From: Alphaproteobacteria bacterium
GTDB taxonomy: Bacteria > Pseudomonadota > Alphaproteobacteria > Rickettsiales > VGDC01
Reading direction: 5' to 3'
Length of the DNA: 63,641 nucleotides
Assembly: GCA_022450665.1 (NCBI GenBank)
Contig: JAKUPQ010000004.1
Span: 1 to 63,641 of the forward strand
Shown: piece after piece, positions 3,156 through 57,036 of the stretch
How the letters are laid out: each line of letters begins with the position of its first letter
Numbering within the stretch: the first letter of the stretch is position 1
Position numbers and translations under genes: made by a program
The notes under the pieces: model-generated
The model's database searches: none
What the model was told of the DNA's origin: nothing
Seen by the model: the letters and a program-made list of their open reading frames with translations, nothing else

Positions 3156-4298
3156 TTAACCCCTTGGCGATTTTCGTGCAACCTCTGCCTCCCACTCCTC
3201 ATCCCACAATTCTTGCAGGGTGCCTTCCTCAATCGCGGTACGGATTCTGCGCATTAGGGTTTGGTAGTAGTGTAGATTATGTTGCGTCATGAGCATGGCG
3301 CCTAAAATCTCGTCGCAGCGTATGAGGTGGTGAATATAGGCGCGGCTAAACTGTGTGCAGGCATTACACTCACAAGCAGGATCCAGCGGCGTGGGGTCGC
3401 TGGCATGTTTGGCGTTGCGCATGTTTATCTCGCCCTGGCTGGTATATGCGCGAGCATTGCGCGCCACTCGCGTGGGCAACACGCAATCAAACATATCTAC
3501 TCCACGCATAACCGCGCCAATGATATCCAGCGGCTTGCCCACGCCCATTAAATAGCGGGGTTTGTCATCGGGTAGCATGTCGGGGGTATAATCCAAAACC
3601 TCAAACATTTTCTCCTGCCCCTCGCCCACAGCAAGGCCGCCAATGGCATAACCATCAAATCCAATTTCTTTAAGGGCATTGGCAGAAAATTCTCTGTGCT
3701 TAGGAAACACCCCACCCTGATTTATGCCAAATAATCCATAGCCGGTGCGCTGCGTGAAGGCGGCTTTACTGCGGCCTGCCCAGCGCATTGACATTTCCAT
3801 AGACTTCTTAAGCTGCGGCTCCTCGCAAGGATAGGGTGGACACTCATCGAACACCATCGTAATAGTGCTACCTAACAAATGCTGAATTTCAATGCTGCGC
3901 TCTGGCGACACAAAATGCTTACTGCCATCGAGATGGCTACTGAATGTCACGCCTTCTTCCGTGATTTTGCGCAAACCTGCAAGGCTCATCACCTGAAAGC
4001 CACCACTATCGGTGAGGATCGGCTTATGCCAGTTCATGAATTGATGCAATCCGCCTAGTTCGGCAATGCGCTCGGCAGTGGGACGTAGCATGAGATGATA
4101 GGTGTTACCCAACAAAATTTCTGCCCCTGTGGCAGCCACTTCTTCTGGGCGCATGGCTTTAACTGTCGCAGCTGTGCCCACAGGCATAAACACCGGCGTG
4201 TGGATGACGCCATGCGCTGTGTGCAGCTTTCCCAGACGGGCTTTGCCATCGTTTTTGATTTTTTCAAAGTGAAAAGGCTTGGGAGTTTGGAACATCAT
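3156..4298 (-). CDS. tgt: Queuine tRNA-ribosyltransferase
   Basis: Motifs [36 protein letters not shown] and the zinc site CxCxxC. Confidence 0.98.
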
Positions 4299-5371
4299 AA
4301 ATCCTTACGAAACAGCAGGCAACCATCGCCATAGGAATAAAAGCGATAGTGGTTTTCAATAGCGTGTTGATAGGCAGCGCGCATCTCCTTTAATCCGGCA
4401 AAGGCCGAGACAAGCATAAACAGCGTAGAGCGCGGCAGGTGAAAATTGGTCATTAGCACATCCACCGCCCGAAAGCGATAGCCCGGGGTAATGAATATGC
4501 TGGTCTCACCTACGAAAGGCTGCACCATTCCCTTGTCATCCGTCACACTTTCCAAGACACGCATAGCGGTTGTACCTACGGCAATAATGCGCCCACCACC
4601 TGCTTTAGCAGTGTTAATTGCTGCGGCCTGTTCTGCACTAATCACAATCTCTTCGCTATGCATCTGATGGGCTGTAGTATCGTCCACCTTTACGGGCAAA
4701 AACGTACCTGCGCCAACATGCAACGTTACCTCTACCCGTTTGACACCCATCGCATCAATGTCGGCAAGCAACTCAGGAGTATAATGCAGTCCGGCGGTGG
4801 GGGCTGCTACGGCACCGGCTTCTTTGGCAAACACGGTTTGATAGCGTTCTTCATCGGTGCTATCTGCATCGCGGCGCATATAAGGCGGCAGAGGCATAGC
4901 GCCATAACGGTGGAGTTTTTTTAGCAGCTCCGCACCGCCGCAATCAAACTCCAGCACCACTTCTCCGGTTTCGAGTTTATCGGCACCTGTGGCGTAAAAA
5001 TCTTCGGCAATCGTAAAAACATCTCCTAGACGCAATTTTTTTCCGGGCTTTGCAAATGCCTGCCAGCACTCTTTTTCCCCATCTTGCCTATGGGCTTGTG
5101 TTTGTGCGACATCCACTTTATTTAGCCGCTTATGCAGTGTTACCTCAACTTTTGCTTCGCCGCGCTTGCCCATCAGCCGCGCTGGAATCACGCGAGTGTT
5201 GTTAAACACCATCACATCGCCCTTGCGCAAAAATTGTGGCAAAGATGTAATGCTGGAGTCGGATATGTTTGCGCCATCTACCACAAGCAAACGCGCCGCA
5301 TCACGGGGGGTGACGGGGCGCGTTGCTATGCGTTCTGGCGGCAATTCAAAGTCGAATAGATCGACCTTCAT
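4295..5371 (-). CDS. queA: S-adenosylmethionine:tRNA ribosyltransferase-isomerase
   Basis: [41 protein letters not shown]; start placed at MKVDLF. Confidence 0.98.
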
Positions 5372-5384
5372 CGGCCTACCTTTC

Positions 5385-5924
5385 TTATTCTGCGTCTGCA
5401 GCAATCTGCATTTTAATAATTTTATCCGGGCTGCTTACCGCGCCGTTATTGTATGGGCTGCCTTTTTTGATGCCATCTACCAAATCCATACCTTCAACCA
5501 CTTTACCCCAAGCAGTGTATTGGCCATCGAGGTGTGAAGAGTCTGCAAGCATAATAAACCACTGGCTGTTAGCGCTGTGTGGATCTGCGGTGCGAGCCAT
5601 GGAAGTTACGCCGCGCACATGTACAACATCGTTAAATTCAGATTTCAGGTCGGGCTTATCCGAACCACCAGTGCCTGTTCCGGTTGGATCGCCGGTTTGT
5701 GCCATAAATCCTTCAATTACACGGTGAAACACCACACCATCATAAAAACCTTCACGGGTTAATTCTTTGATACGCGCCACATGCTGCGGAGCTTTTTCAG
5801 GATACATTTCAATAACAACGCGGCCATCTTTTAAGTCGAGATACAGCGTATTTTCAGGATCGGCGGCGTTGGCAGAAACAGTCATCATTAGTCCTATTAT
5901 AATTGTGGAAAGTAATTTTAGCAT
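5385..5924 (-). CDS. Exported cyclophilin-type peptidyl-prolyl isomerase
   Basis: Signal peptide, FYDGVVFHRVIEGFMAQTGDP, SMAR, SANSQWFI; GGAGG RBS before MLKLL. Confidence 0.95.
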   Translation of the reverse strand: MLKLLSTIIIGLMMTVSANAADPENTLYLDLKDGRVVIEMYPEKAPQHVARIKELTREGFYDGVVFHRVIEGFMAQTGDPTGTGTGGSDKPDLKSEFNDVVHVRGVTSMARTADPHSANSQWFIMLADSSHLDGQYTAWGKVVEGMDLVDGIKKGSPYNNGAVSSPDKIIKMQIAADAE

Positions 5925-12803: not shown

Positions 12804-12898
12804 TTGAACTTATATAATCTTTATAACTACCGCCAAACCCCATATATCTCCTTCACAGGCCTACTTGCATAATAGAAATGTTATTCAAGGAGAGCATT

Positions 12899-13147
12899 AT
12901 GCAGGTTACAGCAATCAACGCGGCATTTACCGGAACACAGCGCAAGACGCAAAATTCGGCTTATGAAGACAGCAAAGAGCCACGCTCCACATTTTCTGCA
13001 TTTTTAGAAGATGCCGAACAAGTTGGCGAAACAGAGCTGGATGCCGCGCTGGATCGCGCAATGACGCGCTTTAACGCCCCTGCATCCCAAGCGCCTGCAG
13101 CAGAACCTAACCGCGTTAAACCGCAAATCATAAATTTAGTAGCGTAA
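12899..13147 (+). CDS. Small hypothetical protein (82 aa)
   Basis: AAGGAG RBS before MQVTAINAA; host-like codon usage; CtrA box upstream. Confidence 0.7.
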   Translation: MQVTAINAAFTGTQRKTQNSAYEDSKEPRSTFSAFLEDAEQVGETELDAALDRAMTRFNAPASQAPAAEPNRVKPQIINLVA

Positions 13148-13159
13148 TTTTCATTATTT

Positions 13160-13224
13160 AAAACGAGAAACGCCCCCTCTAAGAGTTTTGGCCGAAGCCA
13201 AAAAGAGGGGGCGTTCTCGATTGC
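13160..13224 (-). repeat. 65-bp hairpin repeat, copy 1 (3' end/terminator of cassette 1)
   Basis: Minus strand CGAGAACGCCCCCTCT-TTTTGGC-TTCG-GCCAAAA-CTCTT-AGAGGGGGCGTTTCTCG-TTTT; 64/65 identical to 13560-13624. Confidence 0.95.
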
Positions 13225-13257
13225 GGTGCTGCAGTAGGACGTGCGTGAAGTTCAGTT

Positions 13258-13410
13258 CTAGTACACGTCGAACACGTCGTGAGGCAGCTTGAGGTCGCGG
13301 CGGAGGCGGTAGATCTGGTAATTGATCCGCTTGGGCATGTTGTGGATCGTGTCGTAGACGACGGCGACGCCGTAGACGAACGCGAAGCAGCCCTTGCCGA
13401 TGATCTCCAT
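13258..13410 (-). CDS. Cassette 1 cargo: 50-aa small protein, not in the ORF track
   Basis: MEIIGKGCFAFVYGVAVVYDTIHNMPKRINYQIYRLRRDLKLPHDVFDVY*; 48 of 50 codons end in G/C; preceded by GAAAGGGTTGGTGTTTGCA. Confidence 0.8.
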   Translation of the reverse strand: MEIIGKGCFAFVYGVAVVYDTIHNMPKRINYQIYRLRRDLKLPHDVFDVY

Positions 13411-13557
13411 TGCAAACACCAACCCTTTCAGGCCAGTAAAGCGAGTGGTATTTCCACACGCAGGGTGTACAGATGTGTAAAACAGCTACACTTTTAAATT
13501 ACTTAAAAGAAAAATAATGTAATTATAATATCTGAGAAATATTACAGTTTTATGACA
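13411..13557 (-). promoter_or_regulatory. Cassette 1 promoter and leader
   Basis: TGTCATAAAACTGTAAT (13541-13557), TATTATAAT (13522-13530) and a ~110-nt leader homologous to the cassette 2 leader. Confidence 0.7.
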
Positions 13558-13559
13558 TA

Positions 13560-13624
13560 AAAACGAGAAACGCCCCCTCTGAGAGTTTTGGCCGAAGCCA
13601 AAAAGAGGGGGCGTTCTCGATTGC
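13560..13624 (-). repeat. 65-bp hairpin repeat, copy 2 (3' end/terminator of cassette 2)
   Basis: Exactly 400 bp from copy 1; the single difference (13181 A vs 13581 G) lies in the unpaired bulge. Confidence 0.95.
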
Positions 13625-13639
13625 AAATGTTGCGTGGCG

Positions 13640-13897
13640 TCATCTCATGTTCATGAATGTGTACGCAGCTGCGCCGATCAGAACGATGAGGATGAGAAAG
13701 ACGAACGGAGCGAGTGTGCCGAGCAAGAGGATCCAGAAGCTGATGTAGTGCAAGACTACGATCGAGCTGAGGATGAACGTTGCGGCAGTCGCCCAGTAGA
13801 TCAGTGGCGGGTTCGAGGAGCACATCACGAGTATCAGTAGAACCGACAGTGTGAGTACAACCGGGAACAAGCCAAGCACGCAAATCCACGGAGACAA
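13640..13897 (-). CDS. Cassette 2 cargo: 85-aa very hydrophobic (about 3 TM) protein
   Basis: TTG start at the position equivalent to the cassette 1 ATG (after GAAAGGTTGGTGTTTGCT); (M)SPWICVLGLFPVVLTLSVLLILVMCSS...AAAYTFMNMR*; 64/85 codons end in G/C. Confidence 0.7.
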   Translation of the reverse strand: MSPWICVLGLFPVVLTLSVLLILVMCSSNPPLIYWATAATFILSSIVVLHYISFWILLLGTLAPFVFLILIVLIGAAAYTFMNMR

Positions 13898-14045
13898 AGC
13901 AAACACCAACCTTTCTAGGGTCAGTCGAGCGGGTGATGAATCACGGGCAGATAAAACAGGTGTGCAAAAACACAGCTAATACTTTTTAAAACAAAAAGAA
14001 AGTTAAGCTGTCATTATAATAGCGCTGTGTTACCGTTTTATGACG
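13898..14045 (-). promoter_or_regulatory. Cassette 2 promoter and leader
   Basis: CGTCATAAAACGGTAAC (14029-14045), TATAAT 10 nt downstream (14013-14018), leader homologous to cassette 1. Confidence 0.7.
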
Positions 14046-14708
14046 TTAGCGGCCGTATTTCGCAGTTAATTCTGTTTTTGCTATTCCGTGTTCATTCAGC
14101 ATAAACCCAACCAGTGCAGGGCTGGCATCTTTTGGTGCTTTAAGCACTTCGGCATTCAATGCATGAACCGTTACAATATAACGATGCGGCTCATCTCCAA
14201 CGGGCGGGCATGGCCCCCCATAGGCATGTTCGCTGTAGTCATTACGCACCTGCACCGCACCTTCTGGCAAACCAGTGCTGCTAGCTGCCATTTCCAACGA
14301 GGTCACATTGGCGGGAATATTATACACTACCCAGTGCCACCAACCGCTTCCGGTGGGTGCATCGGGATCATAAATAGTGACAGCATAACTTTTAGTTTCG
14401 ATGGGAGCGCCGTGCCATGAAAGCGCCGGAGAAATATTTTCACCTTCGCAGCCAAATCCATTAAACAAATGTAATGCCGCAATCGGCTCATCTGCATTGT
14501 AATCCGGACTACTGACTTTAAAAGGATTCTCTTCTTCTATTCCCACCGCTGAGGTTACTTTTTCCGTAGCGGCAACCATCTTACTTTTTGCAACATCAGT
14601 GGCAGCGCTTACTTTTTCTTTTATCACTTCTATAGTGGTTTCTTTTTCCGCTGCGTTTGCACCTGAAACACACGACAGCATTAACGCAGTAGCTATAAGT
14701 TTTTTCAT
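14046..14708 (-). CDS. YbhB/YbcL family (PEBP / Raf kinase inhibitor-like) exported protein
   Basis: Signal peptide, GENISPALSW, YDPDAPTGSGWWHW, YGGPCPP, HRY. Confidence 0.93.
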   Translation of the reverse strand: MKKLIATALMLSCVSGANAAEKETTIEVIKEKVSAATDVAKSKMVAATEKVTSAVGIEEENPFKVSSPDYNADEPIAALHLFNGFGCEGENISPALSWHGAPIETKSYAVTIYDPDAPTGSGWWHWVVYNIPANVTSLEMAASSTGLPEGAVQVRNDYSEHAYGGPCPPVGDEPHRYIVTVHALNAEVLKAPKDASPALVGFMLNEHGIAKTELTAKYGR

Positions 14709-35690: not shown

Positions 35691-37082
35691 TTAAGAGACT
35701 TTTTCCTCTGCCGTTATTCCTAGCATTTTTAGCTTACGATGCAAGGCTGAACGTTCCATGCAGATAAAAGAAGAGGTTTTTGAAATATTTCCACCAAAGC
35801 GATTAATCTGCGACATAAGATATTGCCGTTCAAACAATTCGCGTGCATCACGTAAAGGAAGCGCCATAATATCCTGTTTTAACTCCATTTGAAACGCGGC
35901 CATGGAGGAATCAAACAGATCCGATGGTAACATTTCTACCTTAATATGTTCTTTCATGCCACCCGGCGCCATAATCAACAACCATTCCATCACATTGCGT
36001 AGCTGTCGCACATTACCCGGCCAATCATAGCTTTGCAATGCGGCAAGAGTATCTTCCGAAAGCTTGCGTTGCTGCAACCCCGAAGATTCTGCTGCTCGAC
36101 GCAGAAAATATTGTGCCAGCTCAGGAATATCATCGCGGTGATCTTTGAGCGCTGGCATCTTGAGCGGAACCACATTCAAGCGGTAATACAAATCTTCGCG
36201 GAAACGTCCGGCGCGGATTTCTTCGTTTAAATCACGGTTACTGGCTGCAATCACACGCACATCCACCTCAACCCTACGGCTCCCATGCAAACGTTCAAAT
36301 GAGTTCTCTTGCAAGGCGCGAAGAATCTTCCCTTGCGTTTCCAGTGGCATGTCGGCCACTTCGTCTATAAACAAGGTGCCGCGATGAGCGCGTTCGAATG
36401 TGCCTATTTTTTCTGCTCCGCCGCCAGAGTTGCGGGCTTCTTGCCCAAAAAGCTCGGCATCTATCCATTCCGGCGACATACTTGCCGCATTAAGCAACAC
36501 AAACGGCCCTTTGGAACGGCGGGATTTTGCATGAATCACCCGCGCCGCGACTTCTTTGCCGGTTCCTGCAGCGCCGGTAATCAATACGCGGCTATTGGTG
36601 GGCGCGACTTTATCTATAGTGGCGCCGATAGCATTAATGGCATTAGAGCTGCCCACCAGATTACATTCCGCGCTGGAGCGCAGGCGTAATTCTTCGTTTT
36701 CCTGACGTAGTTGGCTGGTTTCTAAGGCGCGCTTAATCACCAGTAGCAAACGATCTTCTTTGAAAGGCTTTTCAATAAAATCATACGCCCCCATCTGAAT
36801 CGACGATACAGCGGTTTCGATATTGCCATGCCCTGAAATCATAATTACCGGCAATTGAGGGTATTTCTTTTTTGCCAGCTCCAACACGCCTAAACCATCC
36901 AACTCACTTCCTTGCAGCCAAATATCCAACACCAGCACCGATGGCACACGCTCTCCCAGCGCTTGCAATGCAGCATCGCTGCTGCCTGCCATACGTGTTC
37001 CGTACCCTTCATCGGAAAGAATATCGGATATAAGCTCACGAATATCTGCTTCATCATCGACAATCAGTACATCTGCTGCCAT
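35691..37082 (-). CDS. ntrX: Response regulator NtrX
   Basis: Receiver domain (LDIWLQGSELDG), AAA+ domain lacking GAFTGA, C-terminal MERSALHRKLK; follows ntrY. Confidence 0.95.
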   Translation of the reverse strand: MAADVLIVDDEADIRELISDILSDEGYGTRMAGSSDAALQALGERVPSVLVLDIWLQGSELDGLGVLELAKKKYPQLPVIMISGHGNIETAVSSIQMGAYDFIEKPFKEDRLLLVIKRALETSQLRQENEELRLRSSAECNLVGSSNAINAIGATIDKVAPTNSRVLITGAAGTGKEVAARVIHAKSRRSKGPFVLLNAASMSPEWIDAELFGQEARNSGGGAEKIGTFERAHRGTLFIDEVADMPLETQGKILRALQENSFERLHGSRRVEVDVRVIAASNRDLNEEIRAGRFREDLYYRLNVVPLKMPALKDHRDDIPELAQYFLRRAAESSGLQQRKLSEDTLAALQSYDWPGNVRQLRNVMEWLLIMAPGGMKEHIKVEMLPSDLFDSSMAAFQMELKQDIMALPLRDARELFERQYLMSQINRFGGNISKTSSFICMERSALHRKLKMLGITAEEKVS

Positions 37083-37106
37083 GCTAATCCCCTTTAGGCT
37101 TTGTTC

Positions 37107-39362
37107 TTATATCTTTATCGGCATTGCCGGTTTTATTTTTTCTTTTGGCCTTTCAACCGGAAAAACCAATCGCACCAACGCGCCGCCTTCGGGGCGGTTT
37201 TCCAGTTCGACTCGGCCATTATGGTCTTCCATAATCTTCTTCACAATTGCCAGCCCTAATCCTGTGCCCTTTGCGCGGGTAGTTACATATGGCTCAAGCA
37301 AGCGGTGGATTTGGTCACCGGGAAAGCCGATGCCGTTATCTTTCACCTCAATAAGGCAAACATCATCTGTTTGCAAACAGGCGACAACAATATGTCCGTT
37401 CGAACTTTCACTGTCACCTGCATCGTTTGCAAAATGTGCATCAATGGCCTCTGCTGCATTTTTTACAAGATTTGTGATGACTTGTCTAACTTGACTTGCA
37501 TCAATTTCAGCAAATATTGGTTTTTCTGACAATTCCAACGCATAGGTTACGTTAGGATGCGCTGTTTCTTCAGAGAAAACTGCCCTTGATATTAAATCAT
37601 TCATGTCCTCGCGAGAAAAACGGGGCGCTGGCATACGGGCAAAACCTACAAATTCCTCCACCATACGCCCAATATCCCCCACATGGCGGATAATTGTATC
37701 GGTATATTTAGCAAAATTCTCATGCTCACTTTCATCCAGTTGCTTAAGATACTTGCGTTTCAAGCGCTGTGCGGAAAGCTGAATCGGGGTAAGCGGGTTT
37801 TTGATTTCATGCGCCACGCGCCGCGCCACATCCGCCCATGCAGCATGACGCTGCGCCGTTACCATTGGCGTTATATCGTCAAACGTCAAAATATAGCTTT
37901 CGAGTTCGCCATCAAACTCCTGTGCCGCCAGACGCGCATGCAATGTAAGTGTTTTATCATTGCGCTGTATGGTCAAATCTGCTTGTTGCAGGCGGTCTGG
38001 TCGCGCCGCTACTTCCCGCATTATCGGTTCAATCTCTGGTAATATTTCATTCACAGCTTTTCCTGTCATATCCTCTTCGGCAGGCAAGCCCAACAGCTGC
38101 TGCGATGAACGGTTGTTCAATGTAATTACGCCAAAGCTATCCAATGCGATCACTCCAGCAGATACTCCTGATAACACTGCTTCGGTAAAGCGTCTGCGAT
38201 TATCTAACTGGCGATTCGCCTTCATTAAATCGCGCCGCTGCGATGCCAGCTGATTTGTCATACGGTTAAATGCGCGGCCTAATGTGCCAAGCTCGTCATT
38301 ATCCGGGCCTTCATCTACCCGCGTGGCATAATCACCTGCCCTGACGCGCTCGGCAGCTTCGACCAAATGCGAAATAGGTACCACCAGCCGCGCCGCAAAA
38401 AACATGCCGTACCATATTGCAGAAAGCAAAAGCAACAACGCCACCAGCACAAACATTATAGAAAATTGAATTTGTATGTTTGATAGCTGAGCGCGAACGG
38501 CGCGATACTCATTCACTGCAGATTGGGCGTTTTCCATATGCTCAACTACGGCGCGGTCTATTAATCGGCCAATAACCAAAAACGCATCGGGCATAGAGCG
38601 TAGCTTCATCACCGCACGAATTTTATCATCATCGGCAATTACCACAATATTTCCTTGTTCTGCACTATCTACCGCTTGTGGAGGCAGCCGCTCGAATGAA
38701 AGCGCAAATGTAAGGTTGGTATGTGCCAGCATCTGCCCGCGCTGTACGATTGCGGCCTCAACCAAGCCACGTAAATTCGCTTGAGCAGTAAGAATTTTAC
38801 TCAAAGCATTGGGTGTGTTAGAGCCCTCATAAAACTCGCGGTCTAGCTCTGATACCATTGAGCGTACATCAGCTTTGATAATGTCACGATGCTCTTTAAG
38901 GTAAGCTTCTGCCACCACCACCGATTCTTCCAAACCGGTATTCACCCGTTCGCTAAACCATGCCTCGATACCAGCATTCAGGAAAAATGCAGAGAATCCC
39001 GCCACCATGATAGTTGGAATCATGGTAACGAGGCTGAACATCACCACAATGCGCATTTGCAGCCGCGATCCGACAGATCCACTTCGTAACTCCAGCCACA
39101 AGCGATATGCCCGATGAGCAACCACTGCAATAAGCGCCAATAACAACGCCAGATTCACCAGCGCCAGCGTAATAATCGTTTCAGGGTCAGGGCCAAAAGG
39201 GTTTTCGCTACGCGTCATTACCACATAGGTAGTAAAAGCTGAAGCAATGGCCGCAATAATAAGCAACAATGCAATATTACGGCTGAAACTAAACTTTTTA
39301 CCCCGTTTAGCTATGACGCTTTGTGATAATGCAGTCCCTTCTTTTGCTGCCCCCTGAGTCAT
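37107..39362 (-). CDS. ntrY: Sensor histidine kinase NtrY
   Basis: TM-HAMP-PAS-HisKA (AWADVARRVAHEIKNPLTPIQLS)-HATPase. Confidence 0.95.
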   Translation of the reverse strand: MTQGAAKEGTALSQSVIAKRGKKFSFSRNIALLLIIAAIASAFTTYVVMTRSENPFGPDPETIITLALVNLALLLALIAVVAHRAYRLWLELRSGSVGSRLQMRIVVMFSLVTMIPTIMVAGFSAFFLNAGIEAWFSERVNTGLEESVVVAEAYLKEHRDIIKADVRSMVSELDREFYEGSNTPNALSKILTAQANLRGLVEAAIVQRGQMLAHTNLTFALSFERLPPQAVDSAEQGNIVVIADDDKIRAVMKLRSMPDAFLVIGRLIDRAVVEHMENAQSAVNEYRAVRAQLSNIQIQFSIMFVLVALLLLLSAIWYGMFFAARLVVPISHLVEAAERVRAGDYATRVDEGPDNDELGTLGRAFNRMTNQLASQRRDLMKANRQLDNRRRFTEAVLSGVSAGVIALDSFGVITLNNRSSQQLLGLPAEEDMTGKAVNEILPEIEPIMREVAARPDRLQQADLTIQRNDKTLTLHARLAAQEFDGELESYILTFDDITPMVTAQRHAAWADVARRVAHEIKNPLTPIQLSAQRLKRKYLKQLDESEHENFAKYTDTIIRHVGDIGRMVEEFVGFARMPAPRFSREDMNDLISRAVFSEETAHPNVTYALELSEKPIFAEIDASQVRQVITNLVKNAAEAIDAHFANDAGDSESSNGHIVVACLQTDDVCLIEVKDNGIGFPGDQIHRLLEPYVTTRAKGTGLGLAIVKKIMEDHNGRVELENRPEGGALVRLVFPVERPKEKIKPAMPIKI

Positions 39363-40825
39363 CGCCGCCCCGTTTTATGGCCGGTGTGATGCAGGTCAAT
39401 TCCACGCTCTCTTAGCTTTTTGCGCAGGGTATTGCGATTTATTCCCAATATTTCTGCTGCCCGGAGCTGATGCCCCTCTACTTGTTCCATCATTACTTTT
39501 AGCAATGGCTTTTCCATCGAATCCAATACTCGCTCATAAAGTCCGGTAGCGGGCAAATCGCCCTTATGGGCAAGAAAATATTGTCGCAGATGCACCTCGA
39601 TCATATCTTGCAAGGATTCGCTGTTGGCTTTTTTATTCGCCCCCAATGCAGTGGTGGCGATAGGGCGCAACGCATCGCGCACTATTGCTTCGGTAAGAGC
39701 AGGTTCAGACGAAAGCGCCGTAAGCCGGTAAATGAGGTTTTCCAATTCACGCACATTGCCTGGCCACGCATATTCGGTCAGTGCCGTAATAGCATTAGTG
39801 GTCAATCGCTTATCAGGTAATCCTTTTTTGCGTGCATTGGCAAGGCAATGCACCGCCAACGCTTCGATGTCTTCTTTGCGTTCACGCAGGGGCGGCACAT
39901 AAATTGGCACAACATTTAAGCGAAAGAATAAATCTTCGCGGAATGCACCTTCCTGCACCAGAATTGATAAATCTCTGTGGGTTGCACATACAATACGTAT
40001 ATCTGTTTTGTGGGTTTGTGTGCTACCCACGGGCATATATTCACACTCTTGCAGAGCGCGTAGCAGACGTGTCTGGGCATCCAGAGGCATATCGCCAATT
40101 TCATCCAAAAATAATGTACCACCCTCGGCCTGCTCAAAGCGTCCGGCTTTGCGATTGGTTGCGCCGGTAAATGCGCCTTTTTCATGCCCAAACAATTCGC
40201 TTTCAATCAGATCGCGGGGGATAGCCGCCATATTTACCGCAATAAATGGCTTTTTACTACGTGGGCTTAATGTGTGCAATGTGCGGGCAATCAGTTCTTT
40301 ACCAGTACCAGATTCTCCACGTAGCAGCACCGTCAAGTCCACCGGCACTAGCCGCGCCAGAATTTTATATACTTCCTGCATCGCCGGAGAGTGACCTATA
40401 AGCACATGCTCATCATCCGAGGATGTGCCTTCTATCGCTACCGCTTCATCGTCACCCAGACGGTCTGCAAGGGAGGTTTGTACACAACCCACCAGCGCAT
40501 CTAAATCGAACGGCTTAGGGAAATACTCAAATGCGCCAAGCTCAGTTGCTTTAACGGCTGTCATCAGAGTGTTGTTTGCGCTTATGACAATGACAGGCAA
40601 GTCGGGGCGGGCGCTTTTAATGCGTGGCAAGAAATCCAGCCCGTTTCCTTTGGGCATCAGCACATCGGTAATTACCAGATCGCCTTTGCCTTCTTCTACC
40701 CAATTGAGCAAAATTTCTGCGTCATCGGTAGTTACCACATTAAAGCCTTCGCGCCGGATAGCCTGTGATAACACAGTGCAAATGGCGCGGTCATCATCCG
40801 CAAGTAAAACGGTAGGTCTGGACAT
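39359..40825 (-). CDS. ntrC: Nitrogen regulation response regulator NtrC
   Basis: Receiver domain, GESGTGKE, ESELFGHEKGAFTGA, LGINRNTLRKK. Confidence 0.95.
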   Translation of the reverse strand: MSRPTVLLADDDRAICTVLSQAIRREGFNVVTTDDAEILLNWVEEGKGDLVITDVLMPKGNGLDFLPRIKSARPDLPVIVISANNTLMTAVKATELGAFEYFPKPFDLDALVGCVQTSLADRLGDDEAVAIEGTSSDDEHVLIGHSPAMQEVYKILARLVPVDLTVLLRGESGTGKELIARTLHTLSPRSKKPFIAVNMAAIPRDLIESELFGHEKGAFTGATNRKAGRFEQAEGGTLFLDEIGDMPLDAQTRLLRALQECEYMPVGSTQTHKTDIRIVCATHRDLSILVQEGAFREDLFFRLNVVPIYVPPLRERKEDIEALAVHCLANARKKGLPDKRLTTNAITALTEYAWPGNVRELENLIYRLTALSSEPALTEAIVRDALRPIATTALGANKKANSESLQDMIEVHLRQYFLAHKGDLPATGLYERVLDSMEKPLLKVMMEQVEGHQLRAAEILGINRNTLRKKLRERGIDLHHTGHKTGRR

Positions 40826-40898
40826 AATGCATTCTTTTATTTTTGCCAGCGTTGTTTATAGCTGTATTTAACCGCCTTGTCAGGTGATTTTGAGAAAT

Positions 40899-42026
40899 TC
40901 ATGTCCGCGTGGTCACAGCTGGCAACTGCAACGAAAAAACCGTATTGCCGGGGGTGCTGGACTCCAACGCAATTACTCCACCATGATCTGCCACTACTTT
41001 TGCAACCACCGCCAGGCCCAGGCCTTTACCTGTGTTTTTTCCCGTTACAAACGGATCAAAAATCTGGCCGCGCATATCGTCGGCAATGCCACTGCCGTTA
41101 TCACTTATTTGCACACATATGGGCAGGTTCACCAAAATCTCACTGCCCGCCATTGCCACACGATAACCACTACGATACGCGGTAGACAGGCTGATGCGCG
41201 GCACATGTACATCCTGCACCGCTTCTGCGGCATTTTTCACCAAATTCATTATTGCCTGAATAAGCAATTCGCGGTTGCCTTGTACTTCGGGTAGCGAGGG
41301 ATCGTATTGTTCGAAAAATTCCACATGGGATGCCCAGCCCTGCTTGGCAATATTCGTAACATATCGCAGCACTTCATGAATATTCACCGCAGTGGTTTCT
41401 ATAGGTTTTTGGGTAGAAAAATATTCCACCTGCCCCATCAATCCACTAATACGCTCTACCTCGCTGATAATCAAAGTTAGCAGCGATTTGTCATCTGCAT
41501 CCTGCGTAGTTTTATGCAGCAATTGCGCCGCACCTTTGATGCCCGATAGCGGGTTGCGCACTTCATGTGCCAGAATATGCCCCATTACAGCCGCCGAGCG
41601 CATTGTGCTGCGTTGGTTCGCGTGATTTTCCAGTTTCTCGCTGGCGGCAATATTTTCCAGCACCATAATACGCCCAGATTGCGCGTTTTGCACAAAAGGC
41701 TGGCAGTTGGTAATATGCACATGTACTTTTGCCGTCTCACCGCTTCGCAAGGGCTTGAGGTGCAGATCGTACCCTTTTGCACCGTTATGATAATCTGTCG
41801 CTTGCAGCAATAACGCCTGCCATGACGAATCTAGATCGATAATTTCGGCCAGCAACCGGCCATGCATTACCTTGGCACTGACATTCAGCAAACGCTCAGC
41901 GGCGGCATTGGCATAAAAAATTCGATACGCATCATCCATTGCAATCAATGCTAACGGCAGCACATCACATACCGCATCCGCAGAAAATTCAGGTAATGGT
42001 GCTATAGGGTTGGAGGAAATCGGCAT
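40899..42026 (-). CDS. ntrB: Nitrogen regulation histidine kinase NtrB
   Basis: PAS domain, LAHEVRNPLSGIKGAAQLL, YDPSLP, GLGL. Confidence 0.92.
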   Translation of the reverse strand: MPISSNPIAPLPEFSADAVCDVLPLALIAMDDAYRIFYANAAAERLLNVSAKVMHGRLLAEIIDLDSSWQALLLQATDYHNGAKGYDLHLKPLRSGETAKVHVHITNCQPFVQNAQSGRIMVLENIAASEKLENHANQRSTMRSAAVMGHILAHEVRNPLSGIKGAAQLLHKTTQDADDKSLLTLIISEVERISGLMGQVEYFSTQKPIETTAVNIHEVLRYVTNIAKQGWASHVEFFEQYDPSLPEVQGNRELLIQAIMNLVKNAAEAVQDVHVPRISLSTAYRSGYRVAMAGSEILVNLPICVQISDNGSGIADDMRGQIFDPFVTGKNTGKGLGLAVVAKVVADHGGVIALESSTPGNTVFSLQLPAVTTRT

Positions 42027-55078: not shown

Positions 55079-55732
55079 ATGAAAAAGCTGATCCTCACAT
55101 TTTGTACCGCCGTAATATTTATGGCTCCGGCCTACGCCGCGGTCACAAAAAAAACATTTACTGCAACCGACAAAGCCGCCATTGAACGGGTGGAGGATTA
55201 TCTTTCCGATATTAGCACCATCGTGGCAGATTTTGTGCAAATTGCACCTGATGGTGGCATGGCTGATGGTAAATTTTATCTTTCTCGCCCGGGCAAAATG
55301 CGTTGGCAATATAACCCGCCCACGCCAATTTTAATGGTAGCTGATGGCAAGTTTCTCATTTTTTATGATTATGAACTCGACCAAACCAGCTACATTCCCT
55401 TGCAAGAAACACTTGCCGGCTTCCTTGCACGTGACTCGGTAAAATTTGGTAGCGACGTGATTGTCACCAATGTTACCCATGGCGAAGGAAGCTTACGCCT
55501 GTCAGTGGTGCAAAAAGCACGGCCTGATGATGGCAAGCTCACATTGGAATTTGCAGATAATCCCTTGCAATTGCGCAATATGAAAGTGGTGGATGCCACT
55601 GGTCAGGAAACCACTGTTTCGCTTGCTAATGCCCGCTATGGCCAAAAGCTGGATAAAGAATTATTTGTATTTGAAGATAAATCTACCGCGCCGCGCATAG
55701 GTAAATCCGGCAAAACAGGAATTCAGCGCTAG
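55079..55732 (+). CDS. lolA: Outer-membrane lipoprotein carrier LolA
   Basis: Signal peptide, ADFVQ, RPGKMRWQY, VADG; downstream of ftsK. Confidence 0.9.
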   Translation: MKKLILTFCTAVIFMAPAYAAVTKKTFTATDKAAIERVEDYLSDISTIVADFVQIAPDGGMADGKFYLSRPGKMRWQYNPPTPILMVADGKFLIFYDYELDQTSYIPLQETLAGFLARDSVKFGSDVIVTNVTHGEGSLRLSVVQKARPDDGKLTLEFADNPLQLRNMKVVDATGQETTVSLANARYGQKLDKELFVFEDKSTAPRIGKSGKTGIQR

Positions 55733-55749
55733 TGTCATAATTGTTTCAC
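55733..55749 (+). promoter_or_regulatory. Pho-box-like direct repeat
   Basis: TGTCATAATTGTTTCAC; TG-C-TATTTT with the hexamer 10 nt downstream. Confidence 0.55.
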
Positions 55750-55803
55750 ATATCTGTGCTATTTTGCGGCAATATATAAAAAATTGTTTCAGAACGGTAG
55801 CGC

Positions 55804-57036
55804 ATGAAAAAGAAATCTAATTTCCATGATTTAGGTGACGGAATATGCGTAGTGCAATTACGCGATATTGTGTCCGAACAGTTCGACTATGACTGGTTTA
55901 AGCAAAGCGTTACAGAAGACACCTCGGTGGACGCCGACTATAAACAAAGCGTCATTAATGTATTTAATCCTGACTCTTACGTTGCTATTTACAAAGGCAA
56001 TGTAGGAGAGGCATTAGACGCTAAGCTTATGCAAAAAGGCGTAAATGCAAATATTAAAGAACATATAGACTACAATCTCCCCGATGAGATCGCAGACGCT
56101 ATAACGCCTACTCCCCTGCCCGATGACCATCCCACCAGCCAAATGTGGAAAGAGGTGTGGGATAAAACCCTCCAGCATTTTGCAGCCGAAGCGGTGGAAT
56201 ATGAAGCAACAATGCAACGCAAGGGCAAACCCATTACGGAAAATGATACAGGCTATCCTGCGGTTGCGCCGCCAATATATTTGGATGAAGATTTACTCAC
56301 CGTTAGTGCCGTGGCAGGGATGCTTTCACCTGAAAGGTTTGGCGCGGCGATATCAAAGGATTTTACAACCAACCTCACCCCGGAAGAACAAAAAGCCGTA
56401 TTAGCCCATGAGGCTTTCCATGCATTCGAACCTGTATTACGAGGGCAAGAACCACAAGAAACATATAGCGACTCGCAGTGTCCCTTAAGAAAATTAACCT
56501 CTTCATCACAAACCTTCGAAACCCGCGCCGATCATCATGCAGCGCGCTTGGGTATGGGTAATGCGCTGCAAGAAGCCTTACACAAAGGCGATGAAATAGA
56601 TGAAAAAACATTTGACGATCAAAACCGTTTGCTAAGTTATCTGAAATATAGCGGTTTTTCTTTAGATACAGACACAGTTTTGGATTTACAGCGCGACCTG
56701 AATACCGAGAAACCACCGCAAAATTTGGTGACAACAACCTTTTTTGAGCCAATTTCACGTGCGGCGCAGTCAAAAGCGCTAATTAGCAAAGTTTCTCGAT
56801 TCAATCAATTGGTAGAAAATTGCGGTGAGGAAGAGCCACAAAAAGATACTTTCTTAACCCGCTTAGCCAAAGCCCAAAGAGTGCGTAGCGACAGTCATCC
56901 TGATCCTATCACCCGTTTTGGTGCATTATTGCGCACACCCGAATGTCAAGGATGCACCAGCGATGACCCGCGCCGCTCACATAACGATCGCATTAAAACT
57001 ATTTCGCCCACTGGTCTGCAAGGCTTTCAACGCTAA
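55804..57036 (+). CDS. Orphan protein with an M48-like zinc metalloprotease signature
   Basis: LTPEEQKAVLAHEAFH, ETRADHHA and SHPDPITR match the HExxH / E-x-x-AD / HP layout of M48 peptidases. Confidence 0.72.
   Translation: MKKKSNFHDLGDGICVVQLRDIVSEQFDYDWFKQSVTEDTSVDADYKQSVINVFNPDSYVAIYKGNVGEALDAKLMQKGVNANIKEHIDYNLPDEIADAITPTPLPDDHPTSQMWKEVWDKTLQHFAAEAVEYEATMQRKGKPITENDTGYPAVAPPIYLDEDLLTVSAVAGMLSPERFGAAISKDFTTNLTPEEQKAVLAHEAFHAFEPVLRGQEPQETYSDSQCPLRKLTSSSQTFETRADHHAARLGMGNALQEALHKGDEIDEKTFDDQNRLLSYLKYSGFSLDTDTVLDLQRDLNTEKPPQNLVTTTFFEPISRAAQSKALISKVSRFNQLVENCGEEEPQKDTFLTRLAKAQRVRSDSHPDPITRFGALLRTPECQGCTSDDPRRSHNDRIKTISPTGLQGFQR

Follow-up and report, generated by a model that had tools for sequence, protein, structure and literature searches.

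A tandem pair of small-protein units with predicted Pho-box promoters, structured leader RNAs and a deviant codon habit in an uncultured marine alphaproteobacterium

A 63,641-nt stretch of DNA from an uncultured marine alphaproteobacterium (the window) carries two small transcription units on the minus strand, unit A (14046-13560) and unit B (13558-13160). They are arranged head to tail, with the stop codon of a YbhB/PEBP-family gene (14046-14708; NCBIfam TIGR00481) on one side and a short gap before gyrA on the other. All unit coordinates refer to the whole window. Both units lie on contig C89 of the genome, designated G000 (2.48 Mb, 99% completeness); G001 denotes the genome of a sister genus, C with a number a contig or its unit, and L with a number a locus. 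Each unit encloses a small open reading frame (ORF), the cargo. With GC3 as the fraction of codons ending in G or C and box scores taken from the weight matrix introduced below, the features are:

14029..14046, minus strand: predicted Pho box of unit A, ACGTCATAAAACGGTAAC, with the 7-nt direct repeats ACGTCAT and CGGTAAC 11 nt apart around AAAA; 36.5 bits
14013..14018, minus strand: -10 hexamer TATAAT of unit A, exactly 10 bp past the box
14006, minus strand: predicted transcript start of unit A, 7 nt past the -10 hexamer, placed by a conserved G at equal distance in sister units
13898..14006, minus strand: leader of unit A, 109 nt, with a GUGA-UUCA-UCAC hairpin at the P3 position and an ACUGACC/GGUUGGU hairpin that holds the GAAAGG ribosome-binding region
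13640..13897, minus strand: ORF of cargo A, 85 aa, TTG start at 13897, three predicted membrane helices, GC3 0.74
13560..13624, minus strand: terminator A, a long-stem hairpin enclosing an inner GGCUUCGGCC hairpin, followed by a U run
13541..13558, minus strand: predicted Pho box of unit B, ATGTCATAAAACTGTAAT, with the repeats ATGTCAT and CTGTAAT around AAAA, starting 2 nt past the U run of terminator A; 41.5 bits, the top site in the genome
13525..13530, minus strand: -10 hexamer TATTAT of unit B, 10 bp past the box; predicted transcript start at 13518
13411..13518, minus strand: leader of unit B, 108 nt, assigned to the conserved leader RNA family, with the ribosome-binding region within a hairpin
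13258..13410, minus strand: ORF of cargo B, 50 aa, ATG start at 13410, N-terminal half hydrophobic and C-terminal half basic, GC3 0.96
13160..13224, minus strand: terminator B, a 65-nt hairpin 98% identical to terminator A

The two tandem minus-strand units with direct-repeat box, leader, start codon, small ORF and 65-bp hairpin had been described in an initial annotation of this DNA, and every element was found where it had been placed. Box plus -10 hexamer span 14046-14013 in unit A, where the first base of the box is also the last base of the upstream YbhB/PEBP stop codon, and 13558-13525 in unit B. The P3 hairpin of leader B (GCG-U-GUGG AAAUA CCAC-U-CGC) lies at about 13441-13461. Both leaders end in GAAAGG(G)TTGGTGTTTGC(T/A) directly before the start codon. 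Compared with shuffled sequences, the identity between the units is raised in the promoter (z 4.0), the leader (z 5.9) and the part from stop codon to terminator (z 9.0) and is absent from the ORF (z -0.5), so that the similarity indeed stops at the start codon and resumes at the hairpin. The proteins of cargo A and cargo B are dissimilar (Smith-Waterman z 0.3; 119 of 300 shuffles scored equally well). Their codons end in G or C in 64 of 85 and 48 of 50 cases, respectively, against a GC3 of 0.453 (standard deviation, sd, 0.052) for genome ORFs of at least 200 aa; in cargo B the third positions comprise 35 C, 14 G, 2 T and no A, stop codon included. Both the dissimilarity and the GC3 richness had been noticed before and were upheld here. 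Because the third positions are G or C, all three sense frames are open in the unit B region (13154-13459 and 13179-13415, minus strand), as is one antisense frame in unit A (13634-13840, plus strand). Indels would thereby give new tails instead of stops; no sign of a use of these frames was seen. As in the initial annotation, no integrase, transposase or reverse transcriptase was recognized in the window, here among the 45 of 48 ORFs of at least 170 aa that were scanned, the other three overlapping larger genes.

A chimeric assembly at the 65-nt repeat would be a trivial source of such a layout. Logan contigs of one sequencing run, possibly of the source sample (marine plankton), do break at both repeat copies. 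They break only there, however, and match the A/B stretch with 0 differences in three pieces of similar word depth (5.9, 8.9 and 7.1). The repeat is also shorter than the 151-nt reads, its two copies differ at one base, and the tandem layout recurs at the same locus in the sister genus. A chimera is thus extremely improbable, and the A/B finding is real, neither an artefact nor a simple islet.

Further members of the class were picked by scanning all ORFs of G000 for the codon habit, expressed as a codon log-likelihood. Class ORFs reach +0.4 to +1.1 per codon, in contrast to -1.0 (sd 0.2) for the genome. A core box is present within 330 nt upstream of 11 of the 13 best non-overlapping high-likelihood ORFs and of 42 of 2074 ordinary ORFs; the two box-less top ORFs (C105:1548-1730 and C144:23768-23980) are unlike proteins. 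The 65-nt hairpin occurs in G000 only in the two copies described, yet at least 13 units exist in G000, counting C35 with its intermediate GC3 of 0.64, and at least nine in the sister genus. In each, a box is followed after 10 bp by a -10 hexamer and then by a leader of 100-150 nt, a ribosome-binding site within a hairpin, an ORF and a long-stem intrinsic terminator. Three tandem pairs are present in G000 (C89 A/B, C65 a/b and C124 a/b). Terminators are near-identical within four of five tandem pairs and leaders less alike, and the paralogous proteins of a pair are as dissimilar as those of A and B (C65a versus C65b, z 0.6; C124a versus C124b, z 0.2). The conserved frame claimed earlier is therefore real, but it is made of three ordinary parts: a Pho-box promoter shared with a large regulon, a structured leader and an intrinsic terminator.

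Cargo length varies from 50 to 254 aa, and soluble as well as secreted Cys-rich proteins occur. At least one strongly hydrophobic segment, mostly at the extreme N-terminus, is found in 11 of the 13 products. The product of C1 has a Sec-type signal peptide with an A-x-A site and a Cys/Trp-rich body, that of C13 an anchor, a Pro/Thr linker and a Cys-rich domain. Most class ORFs are preceded by an AGGAG-type ribosome-binding site 6-10 nt ahead of the start, and units A and B by a weaker AAAGG site 12-13 nt upstream. A start M-E-(I/F/W/L) followed by a membrane helix is common to cargo B, ORF 2' of the sister genus, C35, L106 and the G001 units C268a, C268b and C83, which hints at a common descent of at least this subgroup. 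Among 5.8 billion proteins no homologue of cargo A was found (0 matches from 20 candidates); cargo B retrieved itself as the sole match, as did the C13 cargo among 6946 candidates. None of the 13 class proteins exceeded any cut-off in Pfam or PADLOC, and a search of the ESM Atlas with cargo B was uninformative (top score 0.78).

The box of units A and B is predicted to be a Pho box of textbook form. In Escherichia coli the Pho box sits just upstream of the -10 hexamer in place of a -35 element, with a 10-bp distance rule. Ten aligned sites served as promoter seed and for the weight matrix. Their consensus (C/T)TGTCAY-AAAA-YNGTMAY is followed by exactly 10 bp in 10/10 sites and then by TAnnnT, and no TTGACA-like hexamer was found 17 bp ahead of the -10 at the box promoters. 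This agrees with the Pho box as characterized in a published account, i.e. two 7-nt direct repeats with a less conserved 4-nt spacer and the core CTGTCAT (PMC4415409). With up to two mismatches, the full pattern occurs 25 times in G000 versus three times for the backwards control and 33 times in G001 versus none; the weight matrix detects 72 sites of at least 12 bits in G000. A PhoB equivalog (TIGR02154; 352 bits, cut-off 296) is encoded in G000 at C68:23329-24000 (locus L049). For its DNA-binding domain the top match is E. coli PhoB chain 1GXP, a PhoB-DNA entry (102.5 bits; next family 66.7), and the two are identical in the recognition-helix stretch RTVDVHIRRLRKAL. A 452-aa ORF adjoining phoB is without NCBIfam match, so no neighbouring PhoR was seen; the genome holds 50 receiver-domain matches.

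The system thus resembles the E. coli Pho regulon in the 18-nt tandem repeat, the (C)TGTCAT core, the 11-nt periodicity, the replacement of the -35 element and the recognition helix of PhoB. It differs in the genes served, since the box here drives a type IV secretion system (T4SS) pilin, an ankyrin protein, ORFans and the small-protein units. Among 20 sampled box-driven genes with ordinary codons, 12 lack a Pfam family; the others include a TrbC/VirB2 T4SS pilin, an ankyrin-repeat protein, a weak leucine-rich repeat (LRR) match, an M48 peptidase and a pseudopilin. In G001 the boxes stand before LRR-type proteins and small GC3-rich ORFs. The PhoB orthologue appears to have turned into the regulator of a host-interaction regulon that includes the small-protein units. 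A similar arrangement is the PmrA regulon of Legionella and Coxiella, in which an OmpR-family regulator acts on Dot/Icm effector genes through a tandem repeat ahead of their -10. In both, the tandem-repeat box of a single response regulator marks dozens of host-interaction genes, many of them ORFans, although the repeat sequence and the member of the regulator family are not the same. To our knowledge, neither a private codon habit nor a shared leader has been described for the PmrA regulon. Within the window, more Pho-box-type promoters were noted before a 410-aa ORFan (55732-57036, plus strand), a Peptidase_C26/glutamine amidotransferase gene (7824-6820, minus strand) and two small ORFs at about 390 and about 34122 (both minus strand).

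Comparative folding identifies the leader as a conserved structured RNA family, new relative to Rfam, in which neither the 3-kb window stretch nor five related loci had a match at gathering score. The leaders of G000, G001 and metagenome contig L106 start with G-UUUCCUUAUUC, 6 nt past the -10 hexamer. In independent single-sequence folds P0 is formed by the 5' end and a GGAAAC some 55 nt further downstream, and it encloses an AUUC...GAAU hairpin (P1) and a variable hairpin (P2). P3 has the form ACCG-[variable stem, loop (G)AAAU(C)]-CGGU, and P4 is a hairpin with the ribosome-binding site (ACAUC-UGAAAG-GAUGU, CACUC-GAAG-GAGUG or ACAC-AGGA-GUGU). In a seed alignment of nine leaders, 85.6% of cells pair versus about 41% with the partners slid, a comparison that favours the proposed structure, as it was written by hand from single-sequence folds of the same, related sequences. 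P3 shows compensatory changes in seven of ten pairs, with a covariation score reached by 0 of 500 shuffles. RNAalifold predicted no pairs on a MAFFT alignment of 17 leaders, in which the stems are misaligned. The covariance model R1, built from the nine-leader alignment, recovered nine leaders in G001 and two in G000 in whole-genome searches. At selected loci, with filters off, it scored leader B (13408-13523) at 31.5 bits (E 3.4e-5), C35 at 30.7, C1 at 28.8, C13 at 20.5, C65b at 12.0 and C65a at 10.8 bits. Leader A shares the end CGACTGACC...GAAAGG(G)TTGGTG with its G001 counterpart.

A CsrA gene is present in each genome (PF02599; 68.8 bits for G000, 69.5 for G001), and GGA is enriched in the leaders (31 versus 16.8 expected; reached by 0 of 500 shuffles). 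Six of 17 leaders contain AAGGATGT inside a hairpin, some 15 nt ahead of the start codon or, in one case, 9 nt. This element equals the 3' part of RUACARGGAUGU, the CsrA consensus obtained by SELEX as quoted in PMC7652899. CsrA-controlled leaders carry two or more GGA motifs, with GGA in hairpin loops that cover the ribosome-binding site, and in this the family may resemble them, although a GGA near the start is also a plain ribosome-binding site. Control by CsrA may be taken as a lead for the family and as a weak one for units A and B.

The codon habit separates the class from the rest of the genome. ATC makes up 0.95 of its codon set in class ORFs and 0.23 in the G000 genome; the corresponding values are 0.96 and 0.20 for TAC, 0.94 and 0.27 for TTC, 0.49 and 0.08 for CTC, 0.56 and 0.08 for GTC, 0.91 and 0.26 for AAG, and 0.88 and 0.29 for GAG. 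The class ORFs of G001 are nearly the same against another background (ATC 0.98, TAC 0.96, TTC 0.98, CTC 0.54, GTC 0.65, AAG 0.90). The GC3 of the class ranges from 0.62 to 0.96 and is alike in both genomes, whose backgrounds are 0.45 (G000) and about 0.68 (G001). When codons are grouped by their first two positions (both A/T, mixed, both G/C), GC3 declines from 0.95 through 0.84 to 0.66 in G000 and from 0.96 through 0.89 to 0.71, the background value, in G001. Ordinary genes show the reverse trend in both genomes. What the class ORFs avoid is the all-A/T codon. Their coding strand is moreover C-rich (C-G skew +0.07 to +0.22 versus -0.06, sd 0.08), and because the first 35 nt past the stop codons are C-rich as well (C 0.39, G 0.17), the property reaches beyond the reading frame.

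Several causes of this habit were rejected. The initial annotation had allowed that highly expressed native genes might be equally GC3-rich; the 27 ORFs of the ribosomal-protein cluster have a GC3 of 0.34-0.54, which rules out high expression. Adaptation to the tRNA pool is ruled out as well, since among the 38 tRNA genes the Lys, Glu and Gln anticodons are only UUU, UUC and UUG, so that the preferred AAG, GAG and CAG have no matching tRNA and are read by wobble. A GC-rich donor is contradicted by the cargo amino acids, which are like or beyond those of the own proteome in F, Y, M, I, N and K richness; their composition belongs to the A/T-rich type (K/(K+R) of 0.47 and a joint share of 0.30 for F, Y, M, I, N and K, versus 0.50 and 0.25 for the proteome). 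A uniform GC pressure fails because GC3 is not raised in G/C-rich codon families. Selection for secondary structure of the ORF was discarded on a mean folding z of -1.33 for the class (4 of 12 below -2) versus -1.23 for ribosomal-protein genes (1 of 14 below -2). The G/C-ending habit is likely held by selection acting on the transcript (or the DNA), rather than by decoding or as a remnant of import. RNase E prefers A/U-rich single strands, and escape from it is one candidate cause. Others are the binding of proteins that seek out A/U, a built-in Rho entry site that would tie completion of the transcript to translation, and dependence on modification of U34 in tRNA.

Some observations touch on this habit. 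GATC is the most over-represented 4-mer of the G000 class ORFs relative to codon-order shuffles (57 versus 35.5, z 4.3); its density of 14.6 per kb versus 2.47 per kb genome-wide stems from NNG|ATC codon pairs. AGG-ATC is frequent even though AGG is the rarest Arg codon in G000. Upstream of mnmG/gidA (C108:751-2907, locus L193), at a distance of 132 nt, there is a box-like site of 17.6 bits with a poor -10. MnmG modifies U34 of the tRNAs that read AAG, GAG and CAG, and through this site the regulon and the codon habit may be connected. In the window, tgt and queA (3156-5404, minus strand) are genes of queuosine at tRNA position 34, which touches NAC/NAU decoding; NAC makes up 0.89-0.96 in the class.

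The sister genus offers a view of the same locus. GyrA and ArgG of G001 are 86% and 89% identical to those of the window, and between argG and gyrA its contig C76 carries two tandem units with box, -10 hexamer, leader and similar long-stem terminators. Their leaders end in GAAAGGGTTGGTG, as do those of A and B. Given this tandem pair with the same leader end at argG-gyrA, the array should be older than the split of the two genera; to judge from the alignments, its frames were kept and its cargos were not. ORF 1' (93 aa, GC3 0.64) and ORF 2' (62 aa, GC3 0.81) are unalignable with cargo A (z 1.0) and cargo B (z 0.7), respectively; A versus 2' reached z 4.0 over a hydrophobic stretch, where shuffling tends to inflate such scores. 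The PEBP gene is absent from the argG-gyrA locus of G001. A small ORF without NCBIfam match (12878-13147, plus strand) converges on unit B. A small opposite-strand ORF with a look-alike N-terminus in G001 (L198 4096-4455, minus strand) lies on the argG side of the tandem pair, so that either the pair or the ORF has moved.

Other cargos are shared by the two genera. The C35-type cargo retains 27% identity over 114 aa (E 6e-6, z 13.6) and the C13-type cargo aligns with z 11.6; both types stay GC3-rich. By this comparison cargos can be inherited and diverge very fast, and at a pace like that of C35 a 50-aa cargo would fall below detection. A metagenome contig of a third organism (L106 437-975, DNA of about 49% GC) carries a unit with the same box, a leader of 71 bits and a C35-type cargo of 129 aa with a GC3 of 0.75. 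The whole 901-nt region had no true match in the DNA of 40 relatives (one 30-nt chance hit). In an order-wide pattern search of 401 genomes with up to two mismatches, only G001 (8 hits, 6 exact) and G000 (1) exceeded the backwards control, the remaining genomes giving 0-3 hits like their controls. A metagenome scan yielded 67 stretches with 60 distinct matches; the first half-site together with the leader hairpin was present in only eight, seven of them on Ga0194112 contigs and one from the third organism. On the Ga0194112 contigs with a called cargo (L103, L131 and L149) the cargo starts are the same as in G001 units. The family is thus known from two species-level genomes and a few metagenome contigs, and the evolutionary argument is a comparison of two genomes.

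On balance, we consider it probable that units A and B are two adjacent members of a family of self-contained small-protein genes peculiar to this lineage, with a predicted PhoB-type switch through the Pho box and likely translation gating by the structured leader. The family would be old and inherited, and its cargos would evolve so fast that short ones become unalignable, a pace suggested by the identity of about 27% between C35-type orthologues while GyrA and ArgG keep 86-89%. Activated PhoB would bind the box and recruit RNA polymerase, and the transcript would start about 7 nt past the -10 hexamer. P0/P1 would lock its 5' end, and a terminator stem longer than 20 bp its 3' end. With the ribosome-binding site held in P4, translation would wait for a second event (protein release, melting or processing), possibly one involving CsrA. 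The paired 5' end, a body purged of A/U-rich triplets and the very stable 3' hairpin may together give a long-lived message. The products would enter the bacterial membrane or be secreted, alongside pilin and ankyrin/LRR proteins, with an envelope role during host contact. Such a system joins two familiar types of control, that of a response-regulator regulon and that of small-protein genes gated by their leader.

Several points weigh against this reading. Transcript starts, PhoB binding and CsrA binding are all predictions from sequence. PhoU had no match in G000 and PstB reached at most 167.5 bits where the cut-off is 343, in which the system departs further from the Pho regulon of E. coli; the regulator may therefore not sense phosphate. 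Leader A is missed by model R1 at E up to 10, and its membership is based on 69-72% identity with leader B (69%: E 2.6e-5) and the likeness of its end to G001. GGA is absent from leader A and occurs once in leader B, away from the ribosome-binding site, a poor fit to CsrA-controlled leaders. Folding z values of the ORFs alone do not differ from those of ribosomal-protein genes and give the idea of a long-lived message no direct support; the z of whole transcripts (-3.9 for B and -7.1 for A) stems largely from terminator and leader. Some cargos of G001, with a GC3 of 0.63 and 0.68, are at or below its background of about 0.68. Lastly, the sharp edges of similarity at the start codon and before the terminator and the near-identical terminators in four of five tandem pairs fit an exchange of cargos as well or better.

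In such an exchange, leader and terminator would act as homology arms, and cargos from a GC3-rich pool of related bacteria or of a co-resident genome would recombine into standing frames. A circle made up of promoter, leader, ORF and terminator might integrate through one crossover at a terminator and leave the inserted unit flanked by two identical hairpins. Unit B is indeed flanked by hairpins that are 98% identical while leaders A and B are only about 70% identical, and the same pattern is seen in C65 and in C6 and C268 of G001. The orthologous argG-gyrA frames with unalignable cargos between proteins that are 86-89% identical fit as well, as do the like GC3 range of the class on two different backgrounds and the G001 cargos at or below theirs. 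Cassette capture was the first proposal of the initial annotation, and its observation of unlike cargos in standing frames holds between orthologous loci. The capture itself does not fare as well, as the scanned window ORFs hold no integrase, transposase or reverse transcriptase and no donor emerged, cargos A, B and C13 having no relatives among the 5.8 billion proteins. The cargo amino acids are unlike those of a GC-rich bacterium, G/C-rich codon families show no rise in GC3, two types of cargo are shared by inheritance between the genera, and the C65 a/b ORFs share length, a three-helix layout and a weak DNA signal (z 2.5), as diverged duplicates would. We regard exchange as unlikely, though deserving serious attention. 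Integron cassette arrays likewise alternate unrelated ORFs with conserved hairpin-forming repeats; their cassettes lack promoters and end in attC, and an IntI-type integrase and attI adjoin the array. But here each unit has its own box, -10 hexamer and leader, the hairpins are followed by U runs and are terminators, no RYYYAAC/GTTRRRY core sites were seen, and the window scan gave no integrase. Foreign genes imported recently behind native promoters, their composition yet undrifted, would explain a codon usage so far from that of the genome and the ORFan status of the cargos. They would hardly account for 13 units of one promoter, leader and terminator design, for the same design and codon habit at the same locus in the sister genus or for the native-like amino-acid make-up, and recent import is improbable.

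An array akin to type I toxin-antitoxin systems, i.e. small hydrophobic membrane toxins made from stable, closed mRNAs that antisense RNAs keep in check, had also been put forward in an LDR-like form. Units A and B share several traits with the mRNAs of hok, ldr, zor and tisB. The product is small and hydrophobic, as in cargo B with its 50 aa and hydrophobic N-terminal half; the leader is long and folded, and a hairpin in it hides the ribosome-binding site; the terminators are strong, and the copies stand in tandem. No antisense partner was seen, however; a sigma-70-type scan found no promoter-like site on the opposite strand within 13160-14045 (two sites in 1.4 kb, 1.8 expected, both outside the units). 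The cargos extend from 50 to 254 aa with a signal-peptide-bearing Cys/Trp-rich protein and soluble proteins among them, paralogues are not conserved in sequence, the promoter is predicted to be activator-dependent and common to pilin and ankyrin genes, and no PADLOC or Pfam toxin family matched. There is thus little to recommend a toxin array. The third suggestion, messages exported as RNA for translation in a GC3-rich host or prey cell, was not borne out. It would suit the G-ending Lys, Glu and Gln codons, for which the bacterium has no matching tRNA, and an organism from marine plankton that appears, from its ankyrin and LRR genes and its T4SS pilin, to live together with a eukaryote. Nevertheless, most units carry AGGAG-type ribosome-binding sites at a distance of 6-10 nt from the start, a Sec-type signal peptide with an A-x-A site is present in one cargo, every unit ends in an intrinsic terminator of the bacterial type and no feature of eukaryotic translation was seen, which makes export very improbable.

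The family of inherited, leader-gated small-protein genes can be extended to a bolder proposal, which we put forward tentatively and hold to be doubtful. The units may form a separate gene class marked by leader RNA and codon dialect, in which the dialect itself is the control device. Messages of the class would be read or preserved only in a certain cell state, set by U34 modification or release of CsrA, and leader and terminator would double as handles for cargo exchange; the whole would amount to a codon-coded expression channel for fast-evolving host-contact proteins. The literature searched, at the level of titles and abstracts, held nothing relevant on a comparable codon phenomenon or regulon, and no precedent was found in it for a class-private codon dialect conserved across genera or for regulatory frames that outlast their cargos.

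Elsewhere in the window, a complete and in itself ordinary NtrY/NtrX and NtrB/NtrC-like block with two sigma-54 activators (35691-42026, minus strand) indicates that the genome is not strongly reduced.

Codon usage that departs from the genome norm is usually read as a sign of recent transfer. Here a native-looking class keeps its habit in two genera of different base composition, a caution against labelling such genes as foreign. Should selection on the message prove true, the units would be a natural system for roles of synonymous sites beyond decoding speed, such as message lifetime, access of nucleases or Rho and modification-dependent reading. They also yield a predicted new family of structured leader RNAs. 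In this uncultured marine alphaproteobacterium PhoB has probably been re-used as a regulator of host interaction, and regulatory frames appear to be conserved while the proteins inside them turn over.

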